Source of the DNA: a virus
Virus record (IMG/VR): IMGVR_UViG_3300029787_004704
Location: 1-64,000 of that record
Reading direction: 5' to 3' (one strand)
Length of the DNA: 64,000 nucleotides
In this document: positions 44,178-64,000 of the stretch, one piece after another
How the letters are laid out: each line of letters begins with the position of its first letter
How positions within the stretch are numbered: the first letter of the stretch is position 1
Notes under the pieces: generated by a model
What the model saw: only the letters and a program-made list of their open reading frames with translations
What the model was told of the DNA's origin: nothing
Databases searched by the model: none
Program-made: the position numbers and the translations under genes

Positions 44178-44810
44178 CTATATATAGAAGTTTCTGTTGG
44201 ACGTTAATGATTCTTGATTGTTCACTTTGACTGCTCTTGGAGTCACCACTTGTATGTTACAGTATAGATCTTTCACAAACATGTCAGCGGCAGTCAGACC
44301 TTCTTCATATGCTCCACGTATTAACCGTTCAGCAGTTTTTGGTTTGATTACGTATCCATAGGTGCCTTGTAATTGTTGTTGTCCTTTGCGATAATGTTCT
44401 AGTTTTTGTATGCTAGGTTCTTGTCCTAGATCAGGATCAGGCTCGACAAATCGGTGTTTGTCCAAATGTAGTAGTTCATCAAACGGTGTTTTGTATGAGT
44501 CTGATACCACAATAGAATCGTGTTCAAGTATGACCACTGTTTCATCTAGTTCAACACATTTTTTCCACATTTCCAAATGTGAAATCATGCATCCTCTGAC
44601 ACCACCTTTATTCCATTTTATTTTGTATAACTTTGGCCCGGGAAAATATGGTTGTAAATTTTCTCGTTTGATATATTCATCTGCACGTGAAGGTGTGTAC
44701 CCTTCAAACATCTCAGCGTCTAGGCCATGTGCTTTAGCACTGACCATTGCGTCAATAGCTGGTTGATGTGTGCTTTCAACTTCTCTTAAAAATAATACAA
44801 ACGCTTTCAT
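44178..44810 (-). CDS. glycosyltransferase family 25
   Basis: GCMISH..MW, ILEHD, GTYGYVI.P..A. Confidence 0.82.
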   Translation of the reverse strand: MKAFVLFLREVESTHQPAIDAMVSAKAHGLDAEMFEGYTPSRADEYIKRENLQPYFPGPKLYKIKWNKGGVRGCMISHLEMWKKCVELDETVVILEHDSIVVSDSYKTPFDELLHLDKHRFVEPDPDLGQEPSIQKLEHYRKGQQQLQGTYGYVIKPKTAERLIRGAYEEGLTAADMFVKDLYCNIQVVTPRAVKVNNQESLTSNRNFYI

Positions 44811-48151: not shown

Positions 48152-48382
48152 TTATAGTAAAGGCAGTTTAGTGTTCTTTGTGTTCTCTATGTTCTGTTTT
48201 ACAAGTTCAGCCATCATGGATCTGTCTTCAGGCCCTAGCAAAAATGCTGTGTTGTAATCCAACGACCCACGCATGTACCAACACAATTTAATAAGTTCAT
48301 CCTTTAAATTTTTGTTTGTGTTTTCAAGTTCTTTAAAATATTCTTCAAGTTCAGAAGGCGAGAGAGTTAGGATCTTGATACG
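48152..48382 (-). CDS. gp51-like segment, predicted -1 frameshift extension of the gp26-like gene (76 aa)
   Basis: open frame RIKILTLSPSELEEY...LCWYMRGSLDY...EDR..M...VKQNIE...LPLL; opens 2 codons before T-TTT-TTC. Confidence 0.65.
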   Translation of the reverse strand, partial: RIKILTLSPSELEEYFKELENTNKNLKDELIKLCWYMRGSLDYNTAFLLGPEDRSMMAELVKQNIENTKNTKLPLL

Positions 48383-49230
48383 AAAAAATTGGAGTTATCC
48401 ATTGATATAGGAGCGTCAAACGACGCTGGAGCACCTTTTTCTATTTGTTCCTTTGTTGGTGTAATAGTAATAGGTTTAATTCTGCCTAAATCTTTTTGTA
48501 CATCTAATCTTTTTTTAATTTTGTCGGCAGTGGCACCATCCATGTTGTCCACAAATTCTTCAATGTAAACACGATCAGTGATAGTTTGTCCATCAGCTGT
48601 GACCTCCAAAATAGATTCTTTCATGTTAGCCAAAGTTAAGTTGGTCATATGGCCAAATATTTCAGCAAATTTTTCCTGTTTTTGTGATGCATTTAATTCA
48701 TTGGTATCAATGACTTGTGTTATAATTCTTTGTTGTTCAAAGGTGCGTAATTGTAAGTTTGTGAGTTGACGATAACTCATTGGCTTTATTTTGAAAGACA
48801 CTTTGTCTGCAGGCACATATCCATCAAATGGTGTCTTGTCAATTTTATCTCCTGCTGTACGCAAATCAACATTGTAGACTACTTTGTCTTCTGTGTTGGG
48901 AATAGTCACATTGATATCCATCATGTGGCCATAAGTTGCAATACGTATAGCAATCATTATGGAGTCTAAATCTAACACCGGCATCATCCATGGATCTTTG
49001 ATTCCTGGCACACATGAACGTATGACATTTATTGTTGATTCTCCGTTTAACAGTGCGTCTGGTGTATTCATGGTCATTTCATCTTTAGCAGTCATAGGAT
49101 ATACTGCAAGTTCTTTTTCGTTGTCAAATACTAAAGCTCCTTCAGGATACCAATCACCATTAGATGGCAGAGTTGTGTATATTGCTGGTTGCCTAAAGAA
49201 CTTTGCTAAAGGGTTTTGTGAAGTTGTCAT
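48367..49230 (-). CDS. baseplate hub assembly protein (T4 gp26-like)
   Basis: NPL..FFRQP.IY..LPS.G..Y, MTAKDE, DLD.I.IAIR.ATYG, C-terminal NFF. Confidence 0.75.
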   Translation of the reverse strand: MTTSQNPLAKFFRQPAIYTTLPSNGDWYPEGALVFDNEKELAVYPMTAKDEMTMNTPDALLNGESTINVIRSCVPGIKDPWMMPVLDLDSIMIAIRIATYGHMMDINVTIPNTEDKVVYNVDLRTAGDKIDKTPFDGYVPADKVSFKIKPMSYRQLTNLQLRTFEQQRIITQVIDTNELNASQKQEKFAEIFGHMTNLTLANMKESILEVTADGQTITDRVYIEEFVDNMDGATADKIKKRLDVQKDLGRIKPITITPTKEQIEKGAPASFDAPISMDNSNFFVSRS

Positions 49231-49280: not shown

Positions 49281-51290
49281 ATGGCTAGTTTTAAAGAGGT
49301 TGATATAGAAGGTGTTCAGGTAAAGGTTCCTCAAGATGGTTTTGCATCTGAAGAAACTCTACAAGAATTGGTAAAAGCACTGGGTGGGCGTAGTGCCGCC
49401 AGTGGTGGTACCGGTGGAGCCAAAGCACTGGCCGGAGCCACAAAAGGAGCAGGCAAAGACGTAAAAGCATTTGGTAAATCTTTGTTCAAAATGAATCCTG
49501 CCCTTAATGCCTTGGAAACAGGATTTAATCTGTTGGGATCTGCTATCACAGGGGCAACTGGTTTAGTAAAGTCAATGGCAACAGCCGATGGTTCGTTTCA
49601 ATCTCTAGGTGCTGTGGTAGATTTTTCAACTGCCCAAATCACAAAATTTACTAATATGATTCCTATATTTGGAGGATTTTTTACAGCCGTGGCAGAATCT
49701 TCGGCCGAGATGGTGAAACTTAAATTGGCATTTATGGATCTCCAAAGAGACACATTCCAGGGTCTGTCTGAAGCAGGTTTTAGATTGAATGGAAATTTAG
49801 GTGATACCTTAACCACAGTTTTAGCGGCGAATATCAGTTTGGATCAGTTTGGAAATATAGTTGGTGAAAACACTGATGGTTTGAGAATATTTGGTGGTAC
49901 AATTAATAATGCCGCAGACCAATTTGCAAACAGATTAGGAAGGCTAACTGATCAAGGATCAGATGTGGGTATGGGATTGCGTCTGCTAGGATTAAATTCA
50001 ACAGCTATTGCTGAAGAATTTGCCGACTTTGTTACAACAAACAGATTGAATGCATCTTTAATGACTGGCAATGAACGGCAGTTGAATGATCAGTTGCTTA
50101 AACGTACTAAGAATGAAAGAATAATAACTGAATTGTCTGGCAAGAGCATCAAAGAACAACGTGCGGCACAAATGGCAGCTGTGGCTGATTCTGCCTTCCA
50201 GGCCGCTTTGGTAGGCATGGGAGAACAGGGAGCAGAATTGACCACATTTGTGGCAGGATTGCCAGGACCAATAGGTGATGCTGTGAAACAGATTATTGCA
50301 TTCGGCACAGTGACTGATGAACAGTCAGCAAGACTGATAGCAACTATACCAGGGTTAAGAGAAACTCTTGAAAATAATATTGAAGGCATCAAAAGCGGAA
50401 ATATAAGTTCAAGCAAAGCAGTGGCAGACACAATCCAATTGGGGCAGAATGCAATTGAAGACGGCAACGGTTTGTTCTTGGCAAAAATATCCATGATTGA
50501 TCCTGCCTTTGCCGCAGTTGCTGATTTTATCATGCAAGGAAGAGCGTCGGCAATACAACTTGAAAATATCAACGATGTGTTAGGTACTTCGTTCACTGAG
50601 CTTGGTCAGGCACAAGAAGAGTTTAATGCACAACATGATGAACAACTTAAGATAGCAGAGGATCTAGCCAAACAGGGCAAATTGAACGAAGAAAATCTTA
50701 GAGCGGCAGGCATGGATGATAAAACGATCGGTATATTGTTAAATGCTGTAAAAGTAGAAGATGCTGTGGGGACGTTCCAAGCAGGATTATTCCAAACAAC
50801 AAATAATCTTGGTCTGTTGGATGACGGAATTACTGGATTGATTGATACTTTAAACAAGATGCTTAGAATGATTGATCCTAATTACGTAAACCCTAACGAA
50901 TTAGCCAGACGAACAAAGGAAGTGGCAGAAAAGGGCGGAGATCAATTATTTGATCCGCTACCAGGTATGGTGTCACCTCTAGAAACAGATTTTAGAAAAG
51001 CAAGATTTGGAGGAGACATACAACAGCAAACAGAGGCATTGGTCGCTGAGGTAGGAATAAAGACAGTTGAGGCCGCAGTACAAGGCGGAAGTATGAACGC
51101 TGACGAGGTTAGGGAGTACAAGGATAATATGAAGGTCTTTGACCGTGAGTATGATGAGGATGGCAAGGTTATAACAAACGGATCTGGACCAAACATGCAA
51201 ACAACTAATGACATATTGATTGATATCAATAAAAATATCAAAAAAAACAATACAGAAATCCACGGAGGCCTACTAAACACCAAGAATTAA
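49281..51290 (+). CDS. tape-measure/baseplate hub-like protein
   Basis: long Ala/Gly-rich helical protein (ASEETL..L N-terminus) between the gp26-like gene and portal. Confidence 0.6.
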   Translation: MASFKEVDIEGVQVKVPQDGFASEETLQELVKALGGRSAASGGTGGAKALAGATKGAGKDVKAFGKSLFKMNPALNALETGFNLLGSAITGATGLVKSMATADGSFQSLGAVVDFSTAQITKFTNMIPIFGGFFTAVAESSAEMVKLKLAFMDLQRDTFQGLSEAGFRLNGNLGDTLTTVLAANISLDQFGNIVGENTDGLRIFGGTINNAADQFANRLGRLTDQGSDVGMGLRLLGLNSTAIAEEFADFVTTNRLNASLMTGNERQLNDQLLKRTKNERIITELSGKSIKEQRAAQMAAVADSAFQAALVGMGEQGAELTTFVAGLPGPIGDAVKQIIAFGTVTDEQSARLIATIPGLRETLENNIEGIKSGNISSSKAVADTIQLGQNAIEDGNGLFLAKISMIDPAFAAVADFIMQGRASAIQLENINDVLGTSFTELGQAQEEFNAQHDEQLKIAEDLAKQGKLNEENLRAAGMDDKTIGILLNAVKVEDAVGTFQAGLFQTTNNLGLLDDGITGLIDTLNKMLRMIDPNYVNPNELARRTKEVAEKGGDQLFDPLPGMVSPLETDFRKARFGGDIQQQTEALVAEVGIKTVEAAVQGGSMNADEVREYKDNMKVFDREYDEDGKVITNGSGPNMQTTNDILIDINKNIKKNNTEIHGGLLNTKN

Positions 51291-51335: not shown

Positions 51336-53051
51336 ATGGCATGGAAAAAATATTTTAATCTTGTACAACCAGACGGTTCAATGTCGCCAGTAAGTGGCAC
51401 CAATACTGCCAATGGTGGTGCAATGATGGGCAAGAGAAACTACACTTCATATCTACCAGAAGTGTACACAGGACATCCAAACAGACAAGAACGTTACTAT
51501 CAATATGATTCAATGGATCAAGATTCAGAAGTAAATGCGGCATTGGATATCATTGCAGAATTCTGCACACAGAATAACGAAAAAACAAAAACACCTTTCA
51601 CTATACAGTACAAAACAGAGCCAACAGAATCAGAAGCAATGATTTTGAATGATGCAATCAAGCAATTCACATCATTGAATGATTGGAGCAGAAGAATGTT
51701 CCGTATGTTCCGAAACACATTAAAGTATGGTGATTCATTTTTTATTAGAGATCCTGAAACACAACAATTGATTCATGTGGCGGCTACAAAATGTGAAAAA
51801 ATTATTGTGAATGAATCCAAAGGCAAAACACCTGAACAGTATGTGTTCAAAGATTTAAACTTAAATCTAGAATCATTGTCAGCATCGCAAGTAGCGGCCA
51901 ATGTAACATATTCTTCACCGGGTGCTTCTGCTATTATTGATCAAGGATATGGCAAGTCAGGTGGAGCATATTCAGGACCAGGCACATATGGCACAGGCGG
52001 TTCAGGCAGATTCGAAAGCACACAGAATCAATATGCAATTGATGCCAATCATGTTACTCATATGAGCATGTCAGAAGGACTTGATGCAAACTTCCCATTT
52101 GGTACATCCATACTGGAAACTGTGTTCAAAACATTCAAGCAGAAAGAAATGCTGGAAGATGCTATCATCATATACAGAGTACACAGAGCACCTGAACGTA
52201 GAGTGTTTTATATTGATGTAGGCAACATGCCAACACATATGGCCATGGGTTTTGTTGAAAGAGTCAAAAATGAAATTCACCAAAGACGTATTCCATCTGT
52301 GAGCGGTGGACAGAATTCAGTGGATGCAACATACAATCCGTTAAGCATAAACGAAGATTATTTCTTCCCACAAACAGCAGAAGGTAGAGGCTCTAAAGTG
52401 GAAACATTGCCAGGTGGCACAAACCTAGGTGAAATTGATGACTTAAGATACTTTACTAATAAACTGTATCGTGCTTTGAGGATTCCAAGTGCTTATTTGC
52501 CCACAGGCCCAGATGATGGTGCCAACCCACAATACTCAGATGGTAGAGTAGGCACAGCATATATTCAAGAATTAAGATTCAACAAGTATTGTGAAAGATT
52601 GCAGGACATTGTTATTCCGCCAATCAATCATGAGTTCAAGTTGTTCCTTAAACAAAGAGGCATTAACATAGACACATCATTGTTTGATGTAAAACTTACA
52701 CCACCACAAAACTTTGCCGCATACAGACAGATTGAACTAGACAATCAACGTGTACAAGCATTCACACAGATAGAGCAAGTACCATATTTGAGTAAAAGAT
52801 TTGCTTTACAAAGATTCTTAGGATTGAGTGAACAAGAACTTGCTAAAAATATGGAGATGTGGGCAGAAGAAAAAGGCGAATCAATGGACAATGCTGTCAA
52901 AGGTGAAGATCTACGTAATGTAGGAGTCACTGGCGGCGATCTTAACACAGACATATCAGATCAAACTCAACCCGATGAAGCACCAGAAGGTCCAGGACCA
53001 GGCGAAGAAGGTGGCGAACTCGAAGCTGGCGATGATGATATTGAGATCTAG
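51336..53051 (+). CDS. 20: portal vertex protein (T4 gp20-like)
   Basis: LEDAIIIYRVHRAPERRVFYIDVGNMP, EDYFFP...GRGSKVETLPGG.NLGEIDD. Confidence 0.95.
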   Translation: MAWKKYFNLVQPDGSMSPVSGTNTANGGAMMGKRNYTSYLPEVYTGHPNRQERYYQYDSMDQDSEVNAALDIIAEFCTQNNEKTKTPFTIQYKTEPTESEAMILNDAIKQFTSLNDWSRRMFRMFRNTLKYGDSFFIRDPETQQLIHVAATKCEKIIVNESKGKTPEQYVFKDLNLNLESLSASQVAANVTYSSPGASAIIDQGYGKSGGAYSGPGTYGTGGSGRFESTQNQYAIDANHVTHMSMSEGLDANFPFGTSILETVFKTFKQKEMLEDAIIIYRVHRAPERRVFYIDVGNMPTHMAMGFVERVKNEIHQRRIPSVSGGQNSVDATYNPLSINEDYFFPQTAEGRGSKVETLPGGTNLGEIDDLRYFTNKLYRALRIPSAYLPTGPDDGANPQYSDGRVGTAYIQELRFNKYCERLQDIVIPPINHEFKLFLKQRGINIDTSLFDVKLTPPQNFAAYRQIELDNQRVQAFTQIEQVPYLSKRFALQRFLGLSEQELAKNMEMWAEEKGESMDNAVKGEDLRNVGVTGGDLNTDISDQTQPDEAPEGPGPGEEGGELEAGDDDIEI

Positions 53052-55160: not shown

Positions 55161-55784
55161 ATGCAAGTACTATCGGAACGATTAACATTTGATCAAGCAC
55201 AAGTTGTGGTTGAATCAAGTAACGAAGGTAAGGACTTGTACATGAAAGGCATTTGCATTCAAGGTAACGTTAAAAATGCAAACCAAAGAGTGTATCCTAC
55301 TTCGGAAATTAGTAAAGCAGTACAAAAAGTATCCGAACAAGTTGCCGGGGGCTCAAGTGTCCTCGGCGAGGTTGACCATCCAGAAGATCTCAAAATCAAT
55401 TTAGATAGAGTATCTCACATGATTACAAGCATGTGGATGGAAGGCCATAACGGATATGGAAAATTAAAGATTCTCCCAACACCAATGGGAAAATTAGTAG
55501 AAACAATGTTACAATCAGGCGTAAAATTAGGCGTATCATCCAGAGGATCAGGCAACGTAGACGAGGCATCAGGGAACGTATCAGAATTTGATATTATTAC
55601 CGTGGATGTTGTGGCTCAACCATCGGCTCCCAATGCTTACCCAACTCCAATTTATGAAGGTCTCCTTAATATGAGACACGGTCATAAACTAATGGGAATT
55701 GCGAAAGCGGCAAGAGAAGACAGTAGAGTTCAAAAACATCTAAAAGAAGGAGTGATCCAATTAATAAAGGATCTTAAACTATAA
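55161..55784 (+). CDS. 21: prohead core protease (T4 gp21-like)
   Basis: NANQRVYP, GEVDHP, VSH, LGVSSRGSG, DVVAQPSAP.A. Confidence 0.95.
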   Translation: MQVLSERLTFDQAQVVVESSNEGKDLYMKGICIQGNVKNANQRVYPTSEISKAVQKVSEQVAGGSSVLGEVDHPEDLKINLDRVSHMITSMWMEGHNGYGKLKILPTPMGKLVETMLQSGVKLGVSSRGSGNVDEASGNVSEFDIITVDVVAQPSAPNAYPTPIYEGLLNMRHGHKLMGIAKAAREDSRVQKHLKEGVIQLIKDLKL

Positions 55785-56875: not shown

Positions 56876-58051
56876 ATGACATCCCAATTGCTAGAACATA
56901 AATGGCAAGAAACTAAAGGCGCTTTAATGGAAGGCGTTGAAGGTTCTAAAGCCAAAAACTTGGATGTGGTCTTAGAGAATACACGCAAATACTTGTCAGA
57001 GCAGGCAACTTCTGGAGCTACTGGTTCCGGTAACGTTGCAACTCTAAACAGAGTAATTTTGCCTGTAATTCGTAGGGTCATGCCAACAGTGATTGCTAAC
57101 GAGCTAGTAGGTGTACAACCTATGACTGGCCCAGTTGGTCAAATTCACACATTGAGAGTTAGATATGCTGACGCAACTACCGGCGGTGCTACAAACATCG
57201 CAGCTGGTGACGAAGCATTATCACCTTTCAAAATTGCATCATCTTATTCAGGTAACGACAGTGACCCGGCTAAGGGTGCATCAACAGCTACTTTAGAAGG
57301 TACTGCAGGTAACAGATTAAACGTGCAGATCCTAAAACAAGTAGTAGAAGCTAAATCAAGAAAACTATCTGCAAGATGGACTTTTGAAGCGGCTCAAGAC
57401 GCACAAGCACAGCAAGGTGTTGATATTGAAGCAGAAATCATGGCGGCATTAGCTCAAGAGATTACTGCTGAGATCGACCAAGAAATAATCGGCTCTCTAA
57501 GAACATTAGCGGGTTCGGCAGCTGCGGCTTTTGATCAATCTGCTGTTTCAGGTACAGCAACATTCGTTGGTGACGAACATGCGGCTCTAGCTGTACTGAT
57601 CAACCAACAAGCAAACTTAATTGCACAAAGAACAAGACGTGGTGCAGGTAACTATGCTGTTGTTTCATCTGAAGCACTAACAATCTTACAATCTGCTACA
57701 ACTTCAGCGTTTGCTAGATCTACAGAGGGTGTATTTGAAGCACCAACTAACACTAAGTTTGTTGGAACTTTGAACAACTCAATGAGAGTCTACGTAGACG
57801 GTTATGCAGCTACAGGAACAGATGTATTAGTAGGATACAAAGGACCATCAGAAGCAGATGCTCCAGCGTTCTATTGCCCATACATACCGTTAATGAGCTC
57901 AGGCGTTGTACTGGATCCGTCTACATTCGAGCCGGTAGTAAGTTTCTTAACTAGATATGGATACACTGAGTTATCAAACACAGCATCATCTCTAGGTAAT
58001 GCGGCTGACTATCTTGCTAGAATTAGCATCAGTAACGTATCATTCAAATAA
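56876..58051 (+). CDS. 23: major capsid protein (T4 gp23-like)
   Basis: RRVMPTVIANELVGVQPMTGPVGQI, SRKLSARWTFEAAQD, FYCPYIPL, TRYG. Confidence 0.97.
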   Translation: MTSQLLEHKWQETKGALMEGVEGSKAKNLDVVLENTRKYLSEQATSGATGSGNVATLNRVILPVIRRVMPTVIANELVGVQPMTGPVGQIHTLRVRYADATTGGATNIAAGDEALSPFKIASSYSGNDSDPAKGASTATLEGTAGNRLNVQILKQVVEAKSRKLSARWTFEAAQDAQAQQGVDIEAEIMAALAQEITAEIDQEIIGSLRTLAGSAAAAFDQSAVSGTATFVGDEHAALAVLINQQANLIAQRTRRGAGNYAVVSSEALTILQSATTSAFARSTEGVFEAPTNTKFVGTLNNSMRVYVDGYAATGTDVLVGYKGPSEADAPAFYCPYIPLMSSGVVLDPSTFEPVVSFLTRYGYTELSNTASSLGNAADYLARISISNVSFK

Positions 58052-60594: not shown

Positions 60595-63500
60595 ATGACC
60601 AAACAACGTATTCAAATAGGTGCTATTAACTCTGGATCCGGCGATACCTTAAGAGCCGCGATGATAAAAATCAATAACAACTTTGATGAGTTGTATGATT
60701 TACAGGGACAAGACTCTAGTGGTCAGGGCATTGATATAAATGGAAACACAATCACATCAAATTTTGAAGACACTGACATAACATTATCACCAAACGGCAC
60801 AGGTGACATTGTAATGGATGGTGATCTTGTTGTTACTGTTATAAAATCAGATGATTCTACAGAAGTTAAAATAAGTGATTCATTGAACGTCACAGGCACA
60901 GTGACAGCAACAGCATTTGTTGGTGATGGATCAGGACTTACAGGAGTAAGTGGTAGTGGTGGTGGCGGCGGTGACTCTACAGAAGTTTACACAAATATTT
61001 TAAGATCAAATGACTCCACTGCTATCCAAGTTGCAGACAATTTAGTACCAACAGCAGATGACACTTTCAGTTTAGGTACAGCAGACAAAAAATGGTCAGC
61101 AGTGCATGTTTCCGGAGGCACTATATTCTTAGGAAACTTACAGATCAAAGATTCAGGATCAAATTCATTACAAATTTTAAGGTCAGACGGGTCTACTACG
61201 GCGGCAGTTGAATCTACAAGCACAACATTGAATGTTGTAGGTGATGACTCCACTGACATGGAAATTGTAGTTGGCACAGATAGATTACATTTCCAAGGTG
61301 GCACAAACATTGAAACATCCACAGACAGTGGTGCACAACTTACAATATCTACAAGTAACACTCCAACATTCAGTGGCACAGTCACAGCAGGTGGATTAAC
61401 AATTGGATCAGCAGTAATTAATGAAGCAGAACTAGAAACTATTGATGGTGTCACAGCAGGCACTGTGGCAGCTTCCAAAGCAGTGATTGTTGATGCCAAC
61501 AAAGACGCGGCATCATTTAGAAACATTACTGCCACTGGTGCAGTAACAGGTGGCTCTTTTGTAATTGGATCTGCAGACATTAGTGAAGCAGATCTAGAAA
61601 AACTAGATGGAATAACAAATGGAACTGCCGCGGCAAATAAAGCAATAGTAGCTGATGGCAACATTGATGTTACTGCAATTAGAAATCTTACACTAACAGG
61701 AAACATACAGGTTGGTGGCGACATGACTGTGAGTGGCACAACTACATCAGTCAACACAACAAATTTAGAAATATCAGATGCACTATTAGAACTAAACAAA
61801 AATAACTCAGGTGGTGCAGATACTGATGCTGGACTATTAATACAAAGAGGATCTGCAGGCAACAATGCCGCGTTTTATTGGAATGAAGGTGCTGACAAAT
61901 TCAAAGCAGTATTAACCACATCGGCAGCCACAGCAAGTGCAGTCACTGACTCAAGCACAGCAACCATTGTTGCAAATCTTGAAGGAGCAGTAACAGGCAA
62001 TGCCGACACAGCAACAGCTTTAGCCACAGCAAGGAATATTGGTGGTGTTAGTTTTGACGGTACTGGAAATATAAATTTACCTGGTGTAAACACTGCCGGT
62101 GACCAAGACACAAGTGGAACTGCCGCAATAGCAACTAAGATTATAGTAACTGATAACGAAAGTACAAATGAAAATAATGTAATTTTGTTTGCGTCTAGCG
62201 TAGGTGATTCGAGTACTGCAAGTGGAAGTGGCGTAGAATCTGATGGTAACATGACATACAATCCCAGCACAGGCAAAATCACTGCTACTGGATTTATAGG
62301 TGCTGTAACTGGTGATGTTACAGGTGATGTTACAGGTAATGCCGACACAGCAACAGCTTTAGCCACAGCAAGAACAATAGGTGGTGTGTCATTTGATGGC
62401 ACAGGAAATATTAACTTGCCAGGAGTTAACACTGCTGGTAACCAAAATACAAGTGGAACAGCCGCGATAGCAACCCTTGTAACAGTAACTGACAACGAAA
62501 ACACAAATGAAGAAAATGTTGTTACATTCGTTGCTGGTGCAGATGCAGATGGTGGCAATGTTGGCCTTGAGTCAGATGGAAACTTTACATATAATCCAAG
62601 CACAGGGGCAGTAACAGCAACAAAATTCAAAGGTGATGGATCAGAACTTACTGGAATAAGCGGTGGTGGTGGATCAAGCACATTGAACGTTGTTGGTGAT
62701 GATTCAACTGACATGGAAATTACGCTTGGAACAGATAGATTATATTTCCAAGGTGGCACAAATATTTCAACGTCAACAGACAGTGGGGCACAACTAACAA
62801 TTACTGTTGCTGATGCTCCAACATTTAGTGGTGCAGTCACTGCCGCTGGATTTACAATAGGCAGTGCCGCTATTAACGAATCGGAACTTGAAACAATTGA
62901 TGGTGTCACAGCAGGTACTGTGGCCGCAAGTAAAGCTGTCGTAGTTGACTCGAACAAAGATGCAACAGGATTTAGAAACGTTACAGGCACAGGAGATGTC
63001 GAAGGTGCAAGTTTAACTGTTACAAGTGGCGTTGCCATTACAGCATCAAGTGGCGATGTTACTGTTGCGAATGCAACATCAAATAAAGATTTAATATTCA
63101 CAGTAAATGATGGTGGCTCTGCTACTGAGGTAATGAGATTAGATGGTGATGTGTCAGCATTATTAGTGGCGTCTGGGAAAGAATTGAGATTTGCAGACTC
63201 CGGAGAAAAAATATCAGGTGACGGCACTGACTTAACCATTGCATCAGGAGCCAAAATAAACCTAACAGCAACATCGGATGTTGTTGTTCCAGCTAACGTA
63301 GGAATTACATTTGGCACTGGCGAAAAAATTGAAGGCGACAACACAGACTTAACTATTACTTCAGGTGCTAAAATTAATTTGGCAGCTACTTCAGATGTAC
63401 ATATTCCAAATGATGTTGGTATTGTGTTTGGTGGAGATTCAGAAAAAATTGAAGGAGATGGAACGGACTTAGTCATATCTGCAAATAATTTAACAGTTGA

Positions 63501-64000
63501 CGCGGCCGCTGATATAATTTTAGACGCAGGTGGCAATGACTTCCAATTCAAAGCAGGTGGCACTCACATATTAAGCATTGTGAATTCATCTAGTGATGTC
63601 ATAATCAAACCTATCGCTGATGCAAAAGATATAATATTGCAACAAAGAGATGGCACAGAAGTTGCTCGCGTTGAAGACAACGGAACATTCAATATTGTCA
63701 CAGACAAATTAGCAATAAATGGCACAGCGGTTACATCAACTGCCGCAGAGTTAAATTTTGTTGATGGCAGTACAGCAGGCACTGTGGTGGCATCTAAAGC
63801 AGTGGTTGTCGATTCAAACAAAGATGCTGGAGACTTCCGTAACTTAACTGGAGTAACTTTAAAAGGAACAACTTCATTACAAACACCATTGATTGAATTC
63901 ACTGATGGCGACAATGCAATTACTATTGCAAATGGAGGTGGTATTACTGCTAATACAAGTTTAACATTGGCAAGTGGTGCAACTGTTACAGCAATACTTG
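60595..64000 (+). CDS. large tail fibre/baseplate-attached protein, truncated by window end (not in ORF track)
   Basis: MTKQRIQIGAINSGSGDTLRAAMIKINNNFDELY N-terminal anchor motif; TAAATA at 60580; no stop seen before 64000. Confidence 0.8.
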   Translation, partial: MTKQRIQIGAINSGSGDTLRAAMIKINNNFDELYDLQGQDSSGQGIDINGNTITSNFEDTDITLSPNGTGDIVMDGDLVVTVIKSDDSTEVKISDSLNVTGTVTATAFVGDGSGLTGVSGSGGGGGDSTEVYTNILRSNDSTAIQVADNLVPTADDTFSLGTADKKWSAVHVSGGTIFLGNLQIKDSGSNSLQILRSDGSTTAAVESTSTTLNVVGDDSTDMEIVVGTDRLHFQGGTNIETSTDSGAQLTISTSNTPTFSGTVTAGGLTIGSAVINEAELETIDGVTAGTVAASKAVIVDANKDAASFRNITATGAVTGGSFVIGSADISEADLEKLDGITNGTAAANKAIVADGNIDVTAIRNLTLTGNIQVGGDMTVSGTTTSVNTTNLEISDALLELNKNNSGGADTDAGLLIQRGSAGNNAAFYWNEGADKFKAVLTTSAATASAVTDSSTATIVANLEGAVTGNADTATALATARNIGGVSFDGTGNINLPGVNTAGDQDTSGTAAIATKIIVTDNESTNENNVILFASSVGDSSTASGSGVESDGNMTYNPSTGKITATGFIGAVTGDVTGDVTGNADTATALATARTIGGVSFDGTGNINLPGVNTAGNQNTSGTAAIATLVTVTDNENTNEENVVTFVAGADADGGNVGLESDGNFTYNPSTGAVTATKFKGDGSELTGISGGGGSSTLNVVGDDSTDMEITLGTDRLYFQGGTNISTSTDSGAQLTITVADAPTFSGAVTAAGFTIGSAAINESELETIDGVTAGTVAASKAVVVDSNKDATGFRNVTGTGDVEGASLTVTSGVAITASSGDVTVANATSNKDLIFTVNDGGSATEVMRLDGDVSALLVASGKELRFADSGEKISGDGTDLTIASGAKINLTATSDVVVPANVGITFGTGEKIEGDNTDLTITSGAKINLAATSDVHIPNDVGIVFGGDSEKIEGDGTDLVISANNLTVDAAADIILDAGGNDFQFKAGGTHILSIVNSSSDVIIKPIADAKDIILQQRDGTEVARVEDNGTFNIVTDKLAINGTAVTSTAAELNFVDGSTAGTVVASKAVVVDSNKDAGDFRNLTGVTLKGTTSLQTPLIEFTDGDNAITIANGGGITANTSLTLASGATVTAIL
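61225..62990 (+). repeat. ~310-bp module repeated at 1455-bp spacing (61225-61535 and 62680-62990)
   Basis: TLNVVGDDSTDMEI..GTDRL.FQGGTNI.TSTDSGAQLTI...INE.ELETIDGVTAGTVAASKAV in both copies. Confidence 0.85.
61990..62629 (+). repeat. 339-bp tandem duplication (113 aa)
   Basis: GCCGACACAGCAACAGCTTTAGCCACAGCAAG at 62002 and 62341. Confidence 0.9.

Follow-up and report, generated by a model that had tools for sequence, protein, structure and literature searches.

The DNA analysed here, called the window throughout, is a stretch of 64,000 nucleotides that forms positions 1–64,000 of the IMG/VR virus record IMGVR_UViG_3300029787_004704. On its minus strand lies a gp26-like gene with a slippery heptamer near its 3′ end, and a −1 frame that stays open from the heptamer nearly to the next gene (Table 1). 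A 669-aa protein is encoded divergently. The portal gene places the gp26-like locus in the virion structural module, and the block after the 669-aa ORF also holds tail-fibre-like genes along with those for the portal, the protease and the major head protein.

The whole record is 107,868 bp long and its completeness is estimated by CheckV at 26%, so the source is a giant phage, an uncultured one related to T4. A single PF12322 gene and a single copy of the extension are found in these 108 kb (~26% of the genome). The closest cultured relatives of the gp26-like protein are in the giant myophages Atu_ph07, Phosso, GAP32, CBB and PA5oct, at 27–30% identity, and a blastn search with the locus gave no match among cultured phages.

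Table 1. Features at and around the locus, in window coordinates
Feature	Position	Strand	Details
gp26-like gene, frame 0	48367..49230	−	short product of 287 aa (P0001); ATG at 49230, TAA at 48369–48367
Slippery heptamer T_TTT_TTC (X_XXY_YYZ)	48382..48388	−	codons AAT TTT TTC, N281 F282 F283; read from the sequence
−1 frame extension, 76 codons and stop (P0002)	48152..48382	−	from translation
Next downstream gene, 146 aa	47703..48143	−	from the ORF list; no Pfam or PHROG family match; conserved in relatives L001–L004
Divergent neighbour, 669 aa (P0015), possibly a tape-measure protein	49281..51290	+	a lead
Portal protein gene	51336..53051	+	phrog_213 portal, E 1e-108
Prohead protease	55161–55784		downstream of the portal gene
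Major head protein	56876–58051		downstream of the portal gene

Two further ORFs may be recorded. The one at 60595–63999 (+, >1135 aa) runs out of the window end, matches tail-fibre PHROGs repeatedly and has an N-terminus that matches the baseplate wedge tail-fibre connector. The other, of 210 aa at 44178–44810 (−), is surrounded by small genes, downstream of the structural block, and weakly matches a 2OG-Fe(II) oxygenase PHROG (E 3e-7).

The probable slip site and the −1 frame

The gp26-like gene ends with AAT TTT TTC GTA TCA AGA TCC TAA. An earlier note, made from the sequence of the window, had read an in-phase X_XXY_YYZ heptamer here, and our reading confirms T_TTT_TTC at 48388–48382. The same holds for its account of the −1 frame, which is closed by a TAA two codons ahead of the heptamer and is then open for 76 codons, from CGT (48382–48380) up to the stop at 48154–48152. 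Only 8 nt separate this stop from the ATG of the next gene (48143).

The −1 ORF translates as RIKILTLSPSELEEYF...WYMRG...KLPLL. Its starts come late, as had been claimed, the first TTG being codon 33 and the first ATG codon 37. In a −1 shift the base 48382 would be read twice and the long product would consist of residues 1–283 plus 76, so the sizes given in the note, 287 aa and 283+76 = 359 aa, are arithmetically correct. The predicted tryptic peptides are GAPASFDAPISMDNSNFFR, across the junction, for the long form and GAPASFDAPISMDNSNFFVSR for the short form.

Such a frame is unlikely to be open by chance. From the base composition, the probability of 76 open codons is P = 0.005, and only 0.13% of the −1 off-frame runs within the long ORFs of the window reach this length.

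Conservation of the heptamer

Relatives were collected in three IMG/VR sets and from cultured-phage loci, and amount to ~160 non-redundant loci, at 30–92% protein identity, that include about eight cultured phages and are otherwise metagenomic and not fully independent of each other. The heptamer is kept in ~99% of these ~160 unique loci. An exact-pattern scan for relatives of P0136 had returned none, and relatives were found by the alignment-based scan.

The earlier note had proposed looking at relatives for a slippery heptamer at the terminal FF codons. In the first set of 73 unique loci, which are 25–92% identical to the window protein, N-T_TTT_TTC-G stands in 72, the exception being Xoo-sp13 with T_TTT_TTT-A. 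A second clade of higher G+C, with ~29 unique PRF-type loci, has TTTTTTC in all of them. A third scan yielded 66 further unique split loci, 65 of which have TTTTTTCG.

Among the cultured phages, T_TTT_TTC is present in Atu_ph07, Phosso, Vibrio phage 2.275.O, PA5oct, GAP32, CBB and cyanophage P-SSM2, and T_TTT_TTT in Xoo-sp13 and Methylophilales phage Melnitz.

The entropy in the first set is 0 bits at heptamer positions 0–5 and 1.2–1.9 bits at nearby third codon positions, and the neighbouring synonymous sites are saturated among the relatives. Elsewhere in these genes the Phe codons are TTT in 79% and TTC in 21% of cases. With TTC the minority codon, the fixed TTT-TTC is not a matter of codon bias. 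Very probably, some ribosomes slip back one base on the strictly conserved TTTTTTC, giving rise to proteins of 287 and 359 residues.

Coding signature and the missing start

In the first set, low entropy tracks the second codon positions of frame 0 until the heptamer is reached, and those of frame −1 right from the base that follows. Directly after the heptamer comes a C-G-N codon whose third base is free; it encodes an invariant Arg in the −1 frame, while the same bases in frame 0 would give Val, Ala, Gly or Glu.

Differences between the extension of the window and those of its relatives fall mostly on third codon positions. Counted at codon positions 1, 2 and 3, they are 5, 2 and 19 against L001, and 21, 8 and 44 against L002. 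Coding upstream of the WYMRG motif was another check that the note had suggested, and in codons 1–32, which precede any start in the window, third-position changes again dominate (1, 0 and 7 against L001; 6, 3 and 14 against L002). In the overlap of the two frames, the changes relative to close relatives are synonymous in the −1 frame (AAG to AAA, CTA to CTG and ACT to ACC). By these substitution patterns, the −1 frame is under purifying selection and is coding from its first codon.

The extension measures 76 aa from the slip site in nearly all loci and has W-x-M-R-G at residue 35. Its profile matches the window with E 1.1e-32 and, when searched against 1.84 billion cluster representatives, matches 507 clusters formed at 50% identity. 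In these public clusters, gene callers set the start of the small ORF at scattered positions.

The first ATG, GTG or TTG of the −1 ORF in the relatives can be anywhere from codon 2 to codon 37. Across 73 loci, codon 2 is ATA in 33, GTA in 15, ATG in 13 and ATC in 6, the rest being ACA, TCG, AGC, GCA or CTA. The ATG cases are the TGA stop of frame 0 read one base earlier, that is, an ATGA overlap. Given this scatter and the lack of a conserved start, independent initiation cannot be the general mechanism. In the 13 lineages with the overlap, coupled initiation could supplement the slip.

None of the GenBank records that we opened annotates a joined CDS, and the long product is absent from those examined. 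The −1 ORF is unannotated in PA5oct, truncated in Atu_ph07, GAP32 and CBB, and given as a free 57-aa 'gp51' in P-SSM2. That of PA5oct has 73 codons (L133:2365–2587, record positions 77633–77855) and lies in an apparent intergenic gap after the baseplate-hub gene; RNA-seq and proteomics of this phage are published. The gp26 homologue of Acinetobacter phage Stupor (MN662249.1, 117393–118034) is annotated as 'tape measure protein assembly chaperone', without a frameshift.

Fused and two-gene lineages

Lineages in which the PF12322 domain and the extension form one continuous reading frame serve as natural controls. Among the best 150 of the 507 clusters, 20 are such long forms, of 319–351 aa. The junction is x-F-R in 20/20, with x never being Phe. 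Hence the protein needs only one Phe, and the second Phe and the fixed codons belong to the slip site.

The contigs covered include five independent fused loci (L090, L140, L144, L145 and L146). All five are without the heptamer, and all five have a short second gp26-like gene directly beside the fused one. At L090 (8001–9920 of a 260-kb IMG/VR contig), this short paralogue shares 42% identity with the long form and stops short of the FF position. A single gp26-like ORF is present in 72 of the 74 split loci from the same scan.

T4 itself fits the two-gene pattern, having genes 26 and 51, and the FF of its gene 26 is encoded by TTC TTT. A midpoint-rooted FastTree of the N-terminal domains puts the fused forms in at least three places, with uneven support values. 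Judged from the sequences, one gene with the heptamer and two genes without it are interchangeable arrangements, as is expected if the short and long forms are both required.

Stimulatory elements

In the window, the 100 nt downstream of the heptamer contain no stimulatory structure (MFE −6.6 kcal/mol, z = +1.2 against shuffles), nor is a Shine-Dalgarno-like element visible upstream by eye. The slip in the window would thus depend solely on the heptamer, with a possible contribution from the stop codon four codons beyond it. In lambda G/GT, the slip reportedly depends on the heptamer itself.

Many of the relatives L012–L089 have a hairpin that starts 5 nt after the heptamer and is formed by columns 13–24 and 33–44 of alignment A2. 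In this hand-specified hairpin, 71.8% of the cells are paired versus 32–50% with the partner slid, and 0/500 shuffles matched the observed paired percentage or covariation score. Compensatory changes occur at its inner pairs. Some relatives appear to pair with an alternative 3′ partner ~40 nt further on. The hairpin is absent in the window and L001–L004, and RNAalifold gave no consensus structure for all 63 sequences together.

Family, fold and the extension

The gp26-like identity given in the note is well founded. The protein matches PF12322 T4_baseplate over residues 37–243 with 40.2 bits (cut-off 24.5, E 3.9e-10), or 38.6 bits when the whole record is searched, and phrog_150 baseplate hub with E 2e-13. 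It has no match to a Pfam tail-chaperone family, and the extension alone has none to any Pfam or PHROG family.

The label 'gp51-like' for the extension is reasonable by way of cyanophage P-SSM2, the −1 ORF of which matches an HMM of the T4-type gp51 C-terminus with E 7.6e-12, as does that of Melnitz with 3e-7. The label fits the window's own extension less well, its match being weak (E 0.013 in a single comparison), although the register is the same in all three. In hhalign, the extension profile meets the gp51 alignment at the matching C-terminal register with E 0.0076 and a probability of 5%, and the C-terminal tails stay unaligned when the extension or long-form profiles are compared with the single T4 gp51 or gp26 sequence. 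Precomputed annotations of T4-like gp51 assign its tail to PF28602, and the natural long forms carry PF12322 only. Altogether, these profile comparisons suggest a weak kinship of the window extension with the T4 gp51 tail.

AlphaFold2 models the short form with pLDDT 89.1 and pTM 0.83. The natural long form P0011 is modelled as one confident body (pLDDT 95.5, pTM 0.91), on which the extension is predicted to pack as helices. The top PDB match of the short form in Foldseek is the HK97 tail assembly chaperone 2ob9, with E 0.27 and probability 0.33. A fold search with the long form and a PDB sequence profile search gave no match, and VIA-align searches gave nothing convincing, being dominated by a helical hairpin. 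The models thus hint weakly at a fold kinship with the lambda-type chaperones.

The divergent neighbour

The 669-aa protein had been called tape-measure-like, with its gene divergent from the gp26-like one. The divergent position holds, and homologues occupy it in L001, L002, L012 and L015 as well. The identity comes from one feature-based atlas search, in which the tape-measure family TMP_3 appears at 0.92 among otherwise unnamed viral clusters, and is better called a lead.

The protein has no Pfam or PHROG match and no BLASTP similarity to T4 gp29, and tblastn found no match to it among the neighbours in cultured giant phages. The divergent neighbour in PA5oct, GAP32 and CBB is annotated as a virion structural protein. 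The 669-aa protein is rich in Gly and Ala and has hydrophobic segments. As a lead, a tape measure is plausible.

Mechanism and alternatives

The earlier note had proposed that a programmed −1 shift joins the gp26-like gene to the start-less ORF. The heptamer, the switch of coding frame, the lack of a start and the fused controls all support it, and the comparative data favour a programmed shift as the only reading that fits them. We hold it highly likely that a −1 frameshift at 48388–48382 yields the predicted 359-aa long form.

Most ribosomes would read AAT TTT TTC GTA TCA AGA TCC and stop, which gives the 287-aa protein. A minority would slip back one base with two tRNA-Phe on UUU UUC (48387–48382), re-pair them on UUU UUU and decode a further 76 codons of the −1 frame, beginning with CGU. 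The 359-aa product would then share residues 1–283 with the short one and end in a helical extension, and the ratio of short to long form would be set by the slip frequency. By analogy with T4 gp26/gp51 and lambda gpG/gpGT, the two forms may act jointly in assembling the central hub, the tape measure and the tube initiator. The ribosome rather than RNA polymerase as the slipping agent, the frequency of the slip and the protein partners are what we infer here.

The 76 codons might instead be an independent small gene that is translated by coupled re-initiation near the gp26 stop, at an ATG or a near-cognate codon such as the ATC of the window. Database records do annotate a separate small ORF, Atu_ph07 and Phosso have the ATGA overlap right after the heptamer, and codon 2 is ATG in 13 of 73 loci. 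However, it is a non-start (GTA, ACA, TCG, AGC, GCA or CTA) in 21 and ATA or ATC in 39, and it is preceded by an invariant Arg whose codon is free at the wobble base only. No standard start precedes codon 33 in the window, although codons 1–32 evolve as coding sequence. An independent gene also leaves unexplained both the frozen TTT TTC with its preceding T, and the loss of FF together with the gain of a second short gene in the fused lineages. We therefore give it a very low probability.

Transcriptional slippage would make the same protein by another mechanism, with RNA polymerase adding one U in the T6 run. The slip site is indeed a homopolymer run, and an inserted U gives exactly ...NFFRIK, so that the sequence by itself fits both mechanisms. 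Productive slippage by bacterial RNA polymerases is known at runs of ~8–9 or more, however, and T6 is shorter. Moreover, the run is fixed at T6 followed by C in ~99% of loci with no drift to longer ones, it is always in the X_XXY_YYZ phase, and the hairpin of many relatives begins 5 nt downstream, which is the classic spacing of a ribosomal stimulator. RNA polymerase as the slipping agent is unlikely on these grounds. As for an artefact, be it a fortuitous open frame, a pseudogene or a misassembled homopolymer, such runs do invite sequencing errors, but the same arrangement recurs in ~160 contigs and about eight cultured phages with the −1 frame under purifying selection. This conservation effectively refutes an artefact, whose probability is negligible.

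Implications

The tail assembly chaperone genes of long-tailed phages are reportedly joined by a conserved −1 frameshift, as Xu, Hendrix and Duda described in 2004. This is now a textbook rule, and the same logic would here operate in the T4 lineage's own chaperone family. The lambda-type frameshift and the two-gene pair of T4 were already known; new here is a probable tail-chaperone frameshift in the PF12322 family. The note had supposed that a frameshifted chaperone was undescribed for the gp26/gp51 group, and our literature search, in which subscription papers were thinly covered, likewise found no published report of a frameshift in genes of this type.

A passage of the review by Atkins et al. 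(2016; PMC5009743) speaks of the G-T frameshifting as conserved 'except T4'. Passages of Leiman et al. (2010; PMC3004832) count gp26 and gp51 among the chaperones of hub assembly; gp51 is described there as essential, with a function not yet known, and as missing from the particle. If the broader proposal below is true, the sole stated exception to the tail-chaperone rule vanishes and the role of gp51, long without an explanation, can be put to the test. The frameshift itself would readily explain the presence in T4 of two paralogous genes for hub 'catalysts' of unclear function.

With middling confidence, we propose more broadly that the T4 superfamily, comprising the T4-like cyanophages, the pelagic myophages and the giants of the Rak2/PA5oct/Atu_ph07 type, has its own G/GT-like switch built on the PF12322 fold. 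The frameshift would be common in it and probably older; gene duplication would have replaced it several times independently, T4 genes 26 and 51 being one such case. Both forms would chaperone a gp29-like tape measure, with the tube initiator or the tube protein brought in by the extension.

The natural one-gene and two-gene variants make the need for both forms testable. As to annotation, the long product is missing from the records examined, in which the −1 ORF is unannotated, truncated or listed as free-standing.

Comparison with known systems

The locus resembles lambda gpG/gpGT in several respects. In each, a tail-morphogenesis gene has a canonical heptamer close to its 3′ end, and a −1 ORF lacking a start supplies a further C-terminal domain, so that two products would share a common N-terminus. 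The window gene also adjoins that of a large protein, possibly the tape measure. As with the lambda-type chaperones, the T4 homologues are assembly factors, and in the pertinent passages of Leiman et al. gp51 is not in the virion (PMC3004832). Unlike lambda, the window protein is of PF12322 and has 287 aa, and its gene is opposite in strand to the large neighbour rather than flanked by the tube and tape-measure genes. Where lambda has the heptamer G_GGA_AAG, the window has U_UUU_UUC.

Cyanophage P-SSM2 comes close to the window in its PSSM2_015 (57 aa, L138:2193–2366), which agrees in position, in the −1 frame and in the T_TTT_TTC that ends gp26. It differs in being annotated as a free-standing 'gp51 baseplate hub assembly catalyst' with an internal ATG and no frameshift, and its extension is of the T4 gp51 type whereas that of the window is of the WYMRG type. 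The match of PSSM2_015 to T4 gp51 is confined to the C-terminal tail of the latter.

The two-gene relatives L090, L140 and L144–L146 agree with the window in their N-terminal domain and in having the WYMRG extension. In contrast to the window, their extension is fused in frame, the heptamer is missing and a short paralogue is adjacent.

T4 gp26 (208 aa) and gp51 (249 aa) belong to the same family as the window protein, with PF12322 E values of 9e-64 and 4e-52, and likewise pair a short form with a longer one that has a C-terminal tail. T4 gene 26 is divergent from the operon of the tape-measure gene 29, as the window gene is from that of its 669-aa neighbour. Unlike the window, T4 has two separate genes and no slippery site at its FF codons, TTC TTT. 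The tail of its gp51 is shorter than the window extension, which it matches weakly, and matches the cyanophage −1 ORF well.
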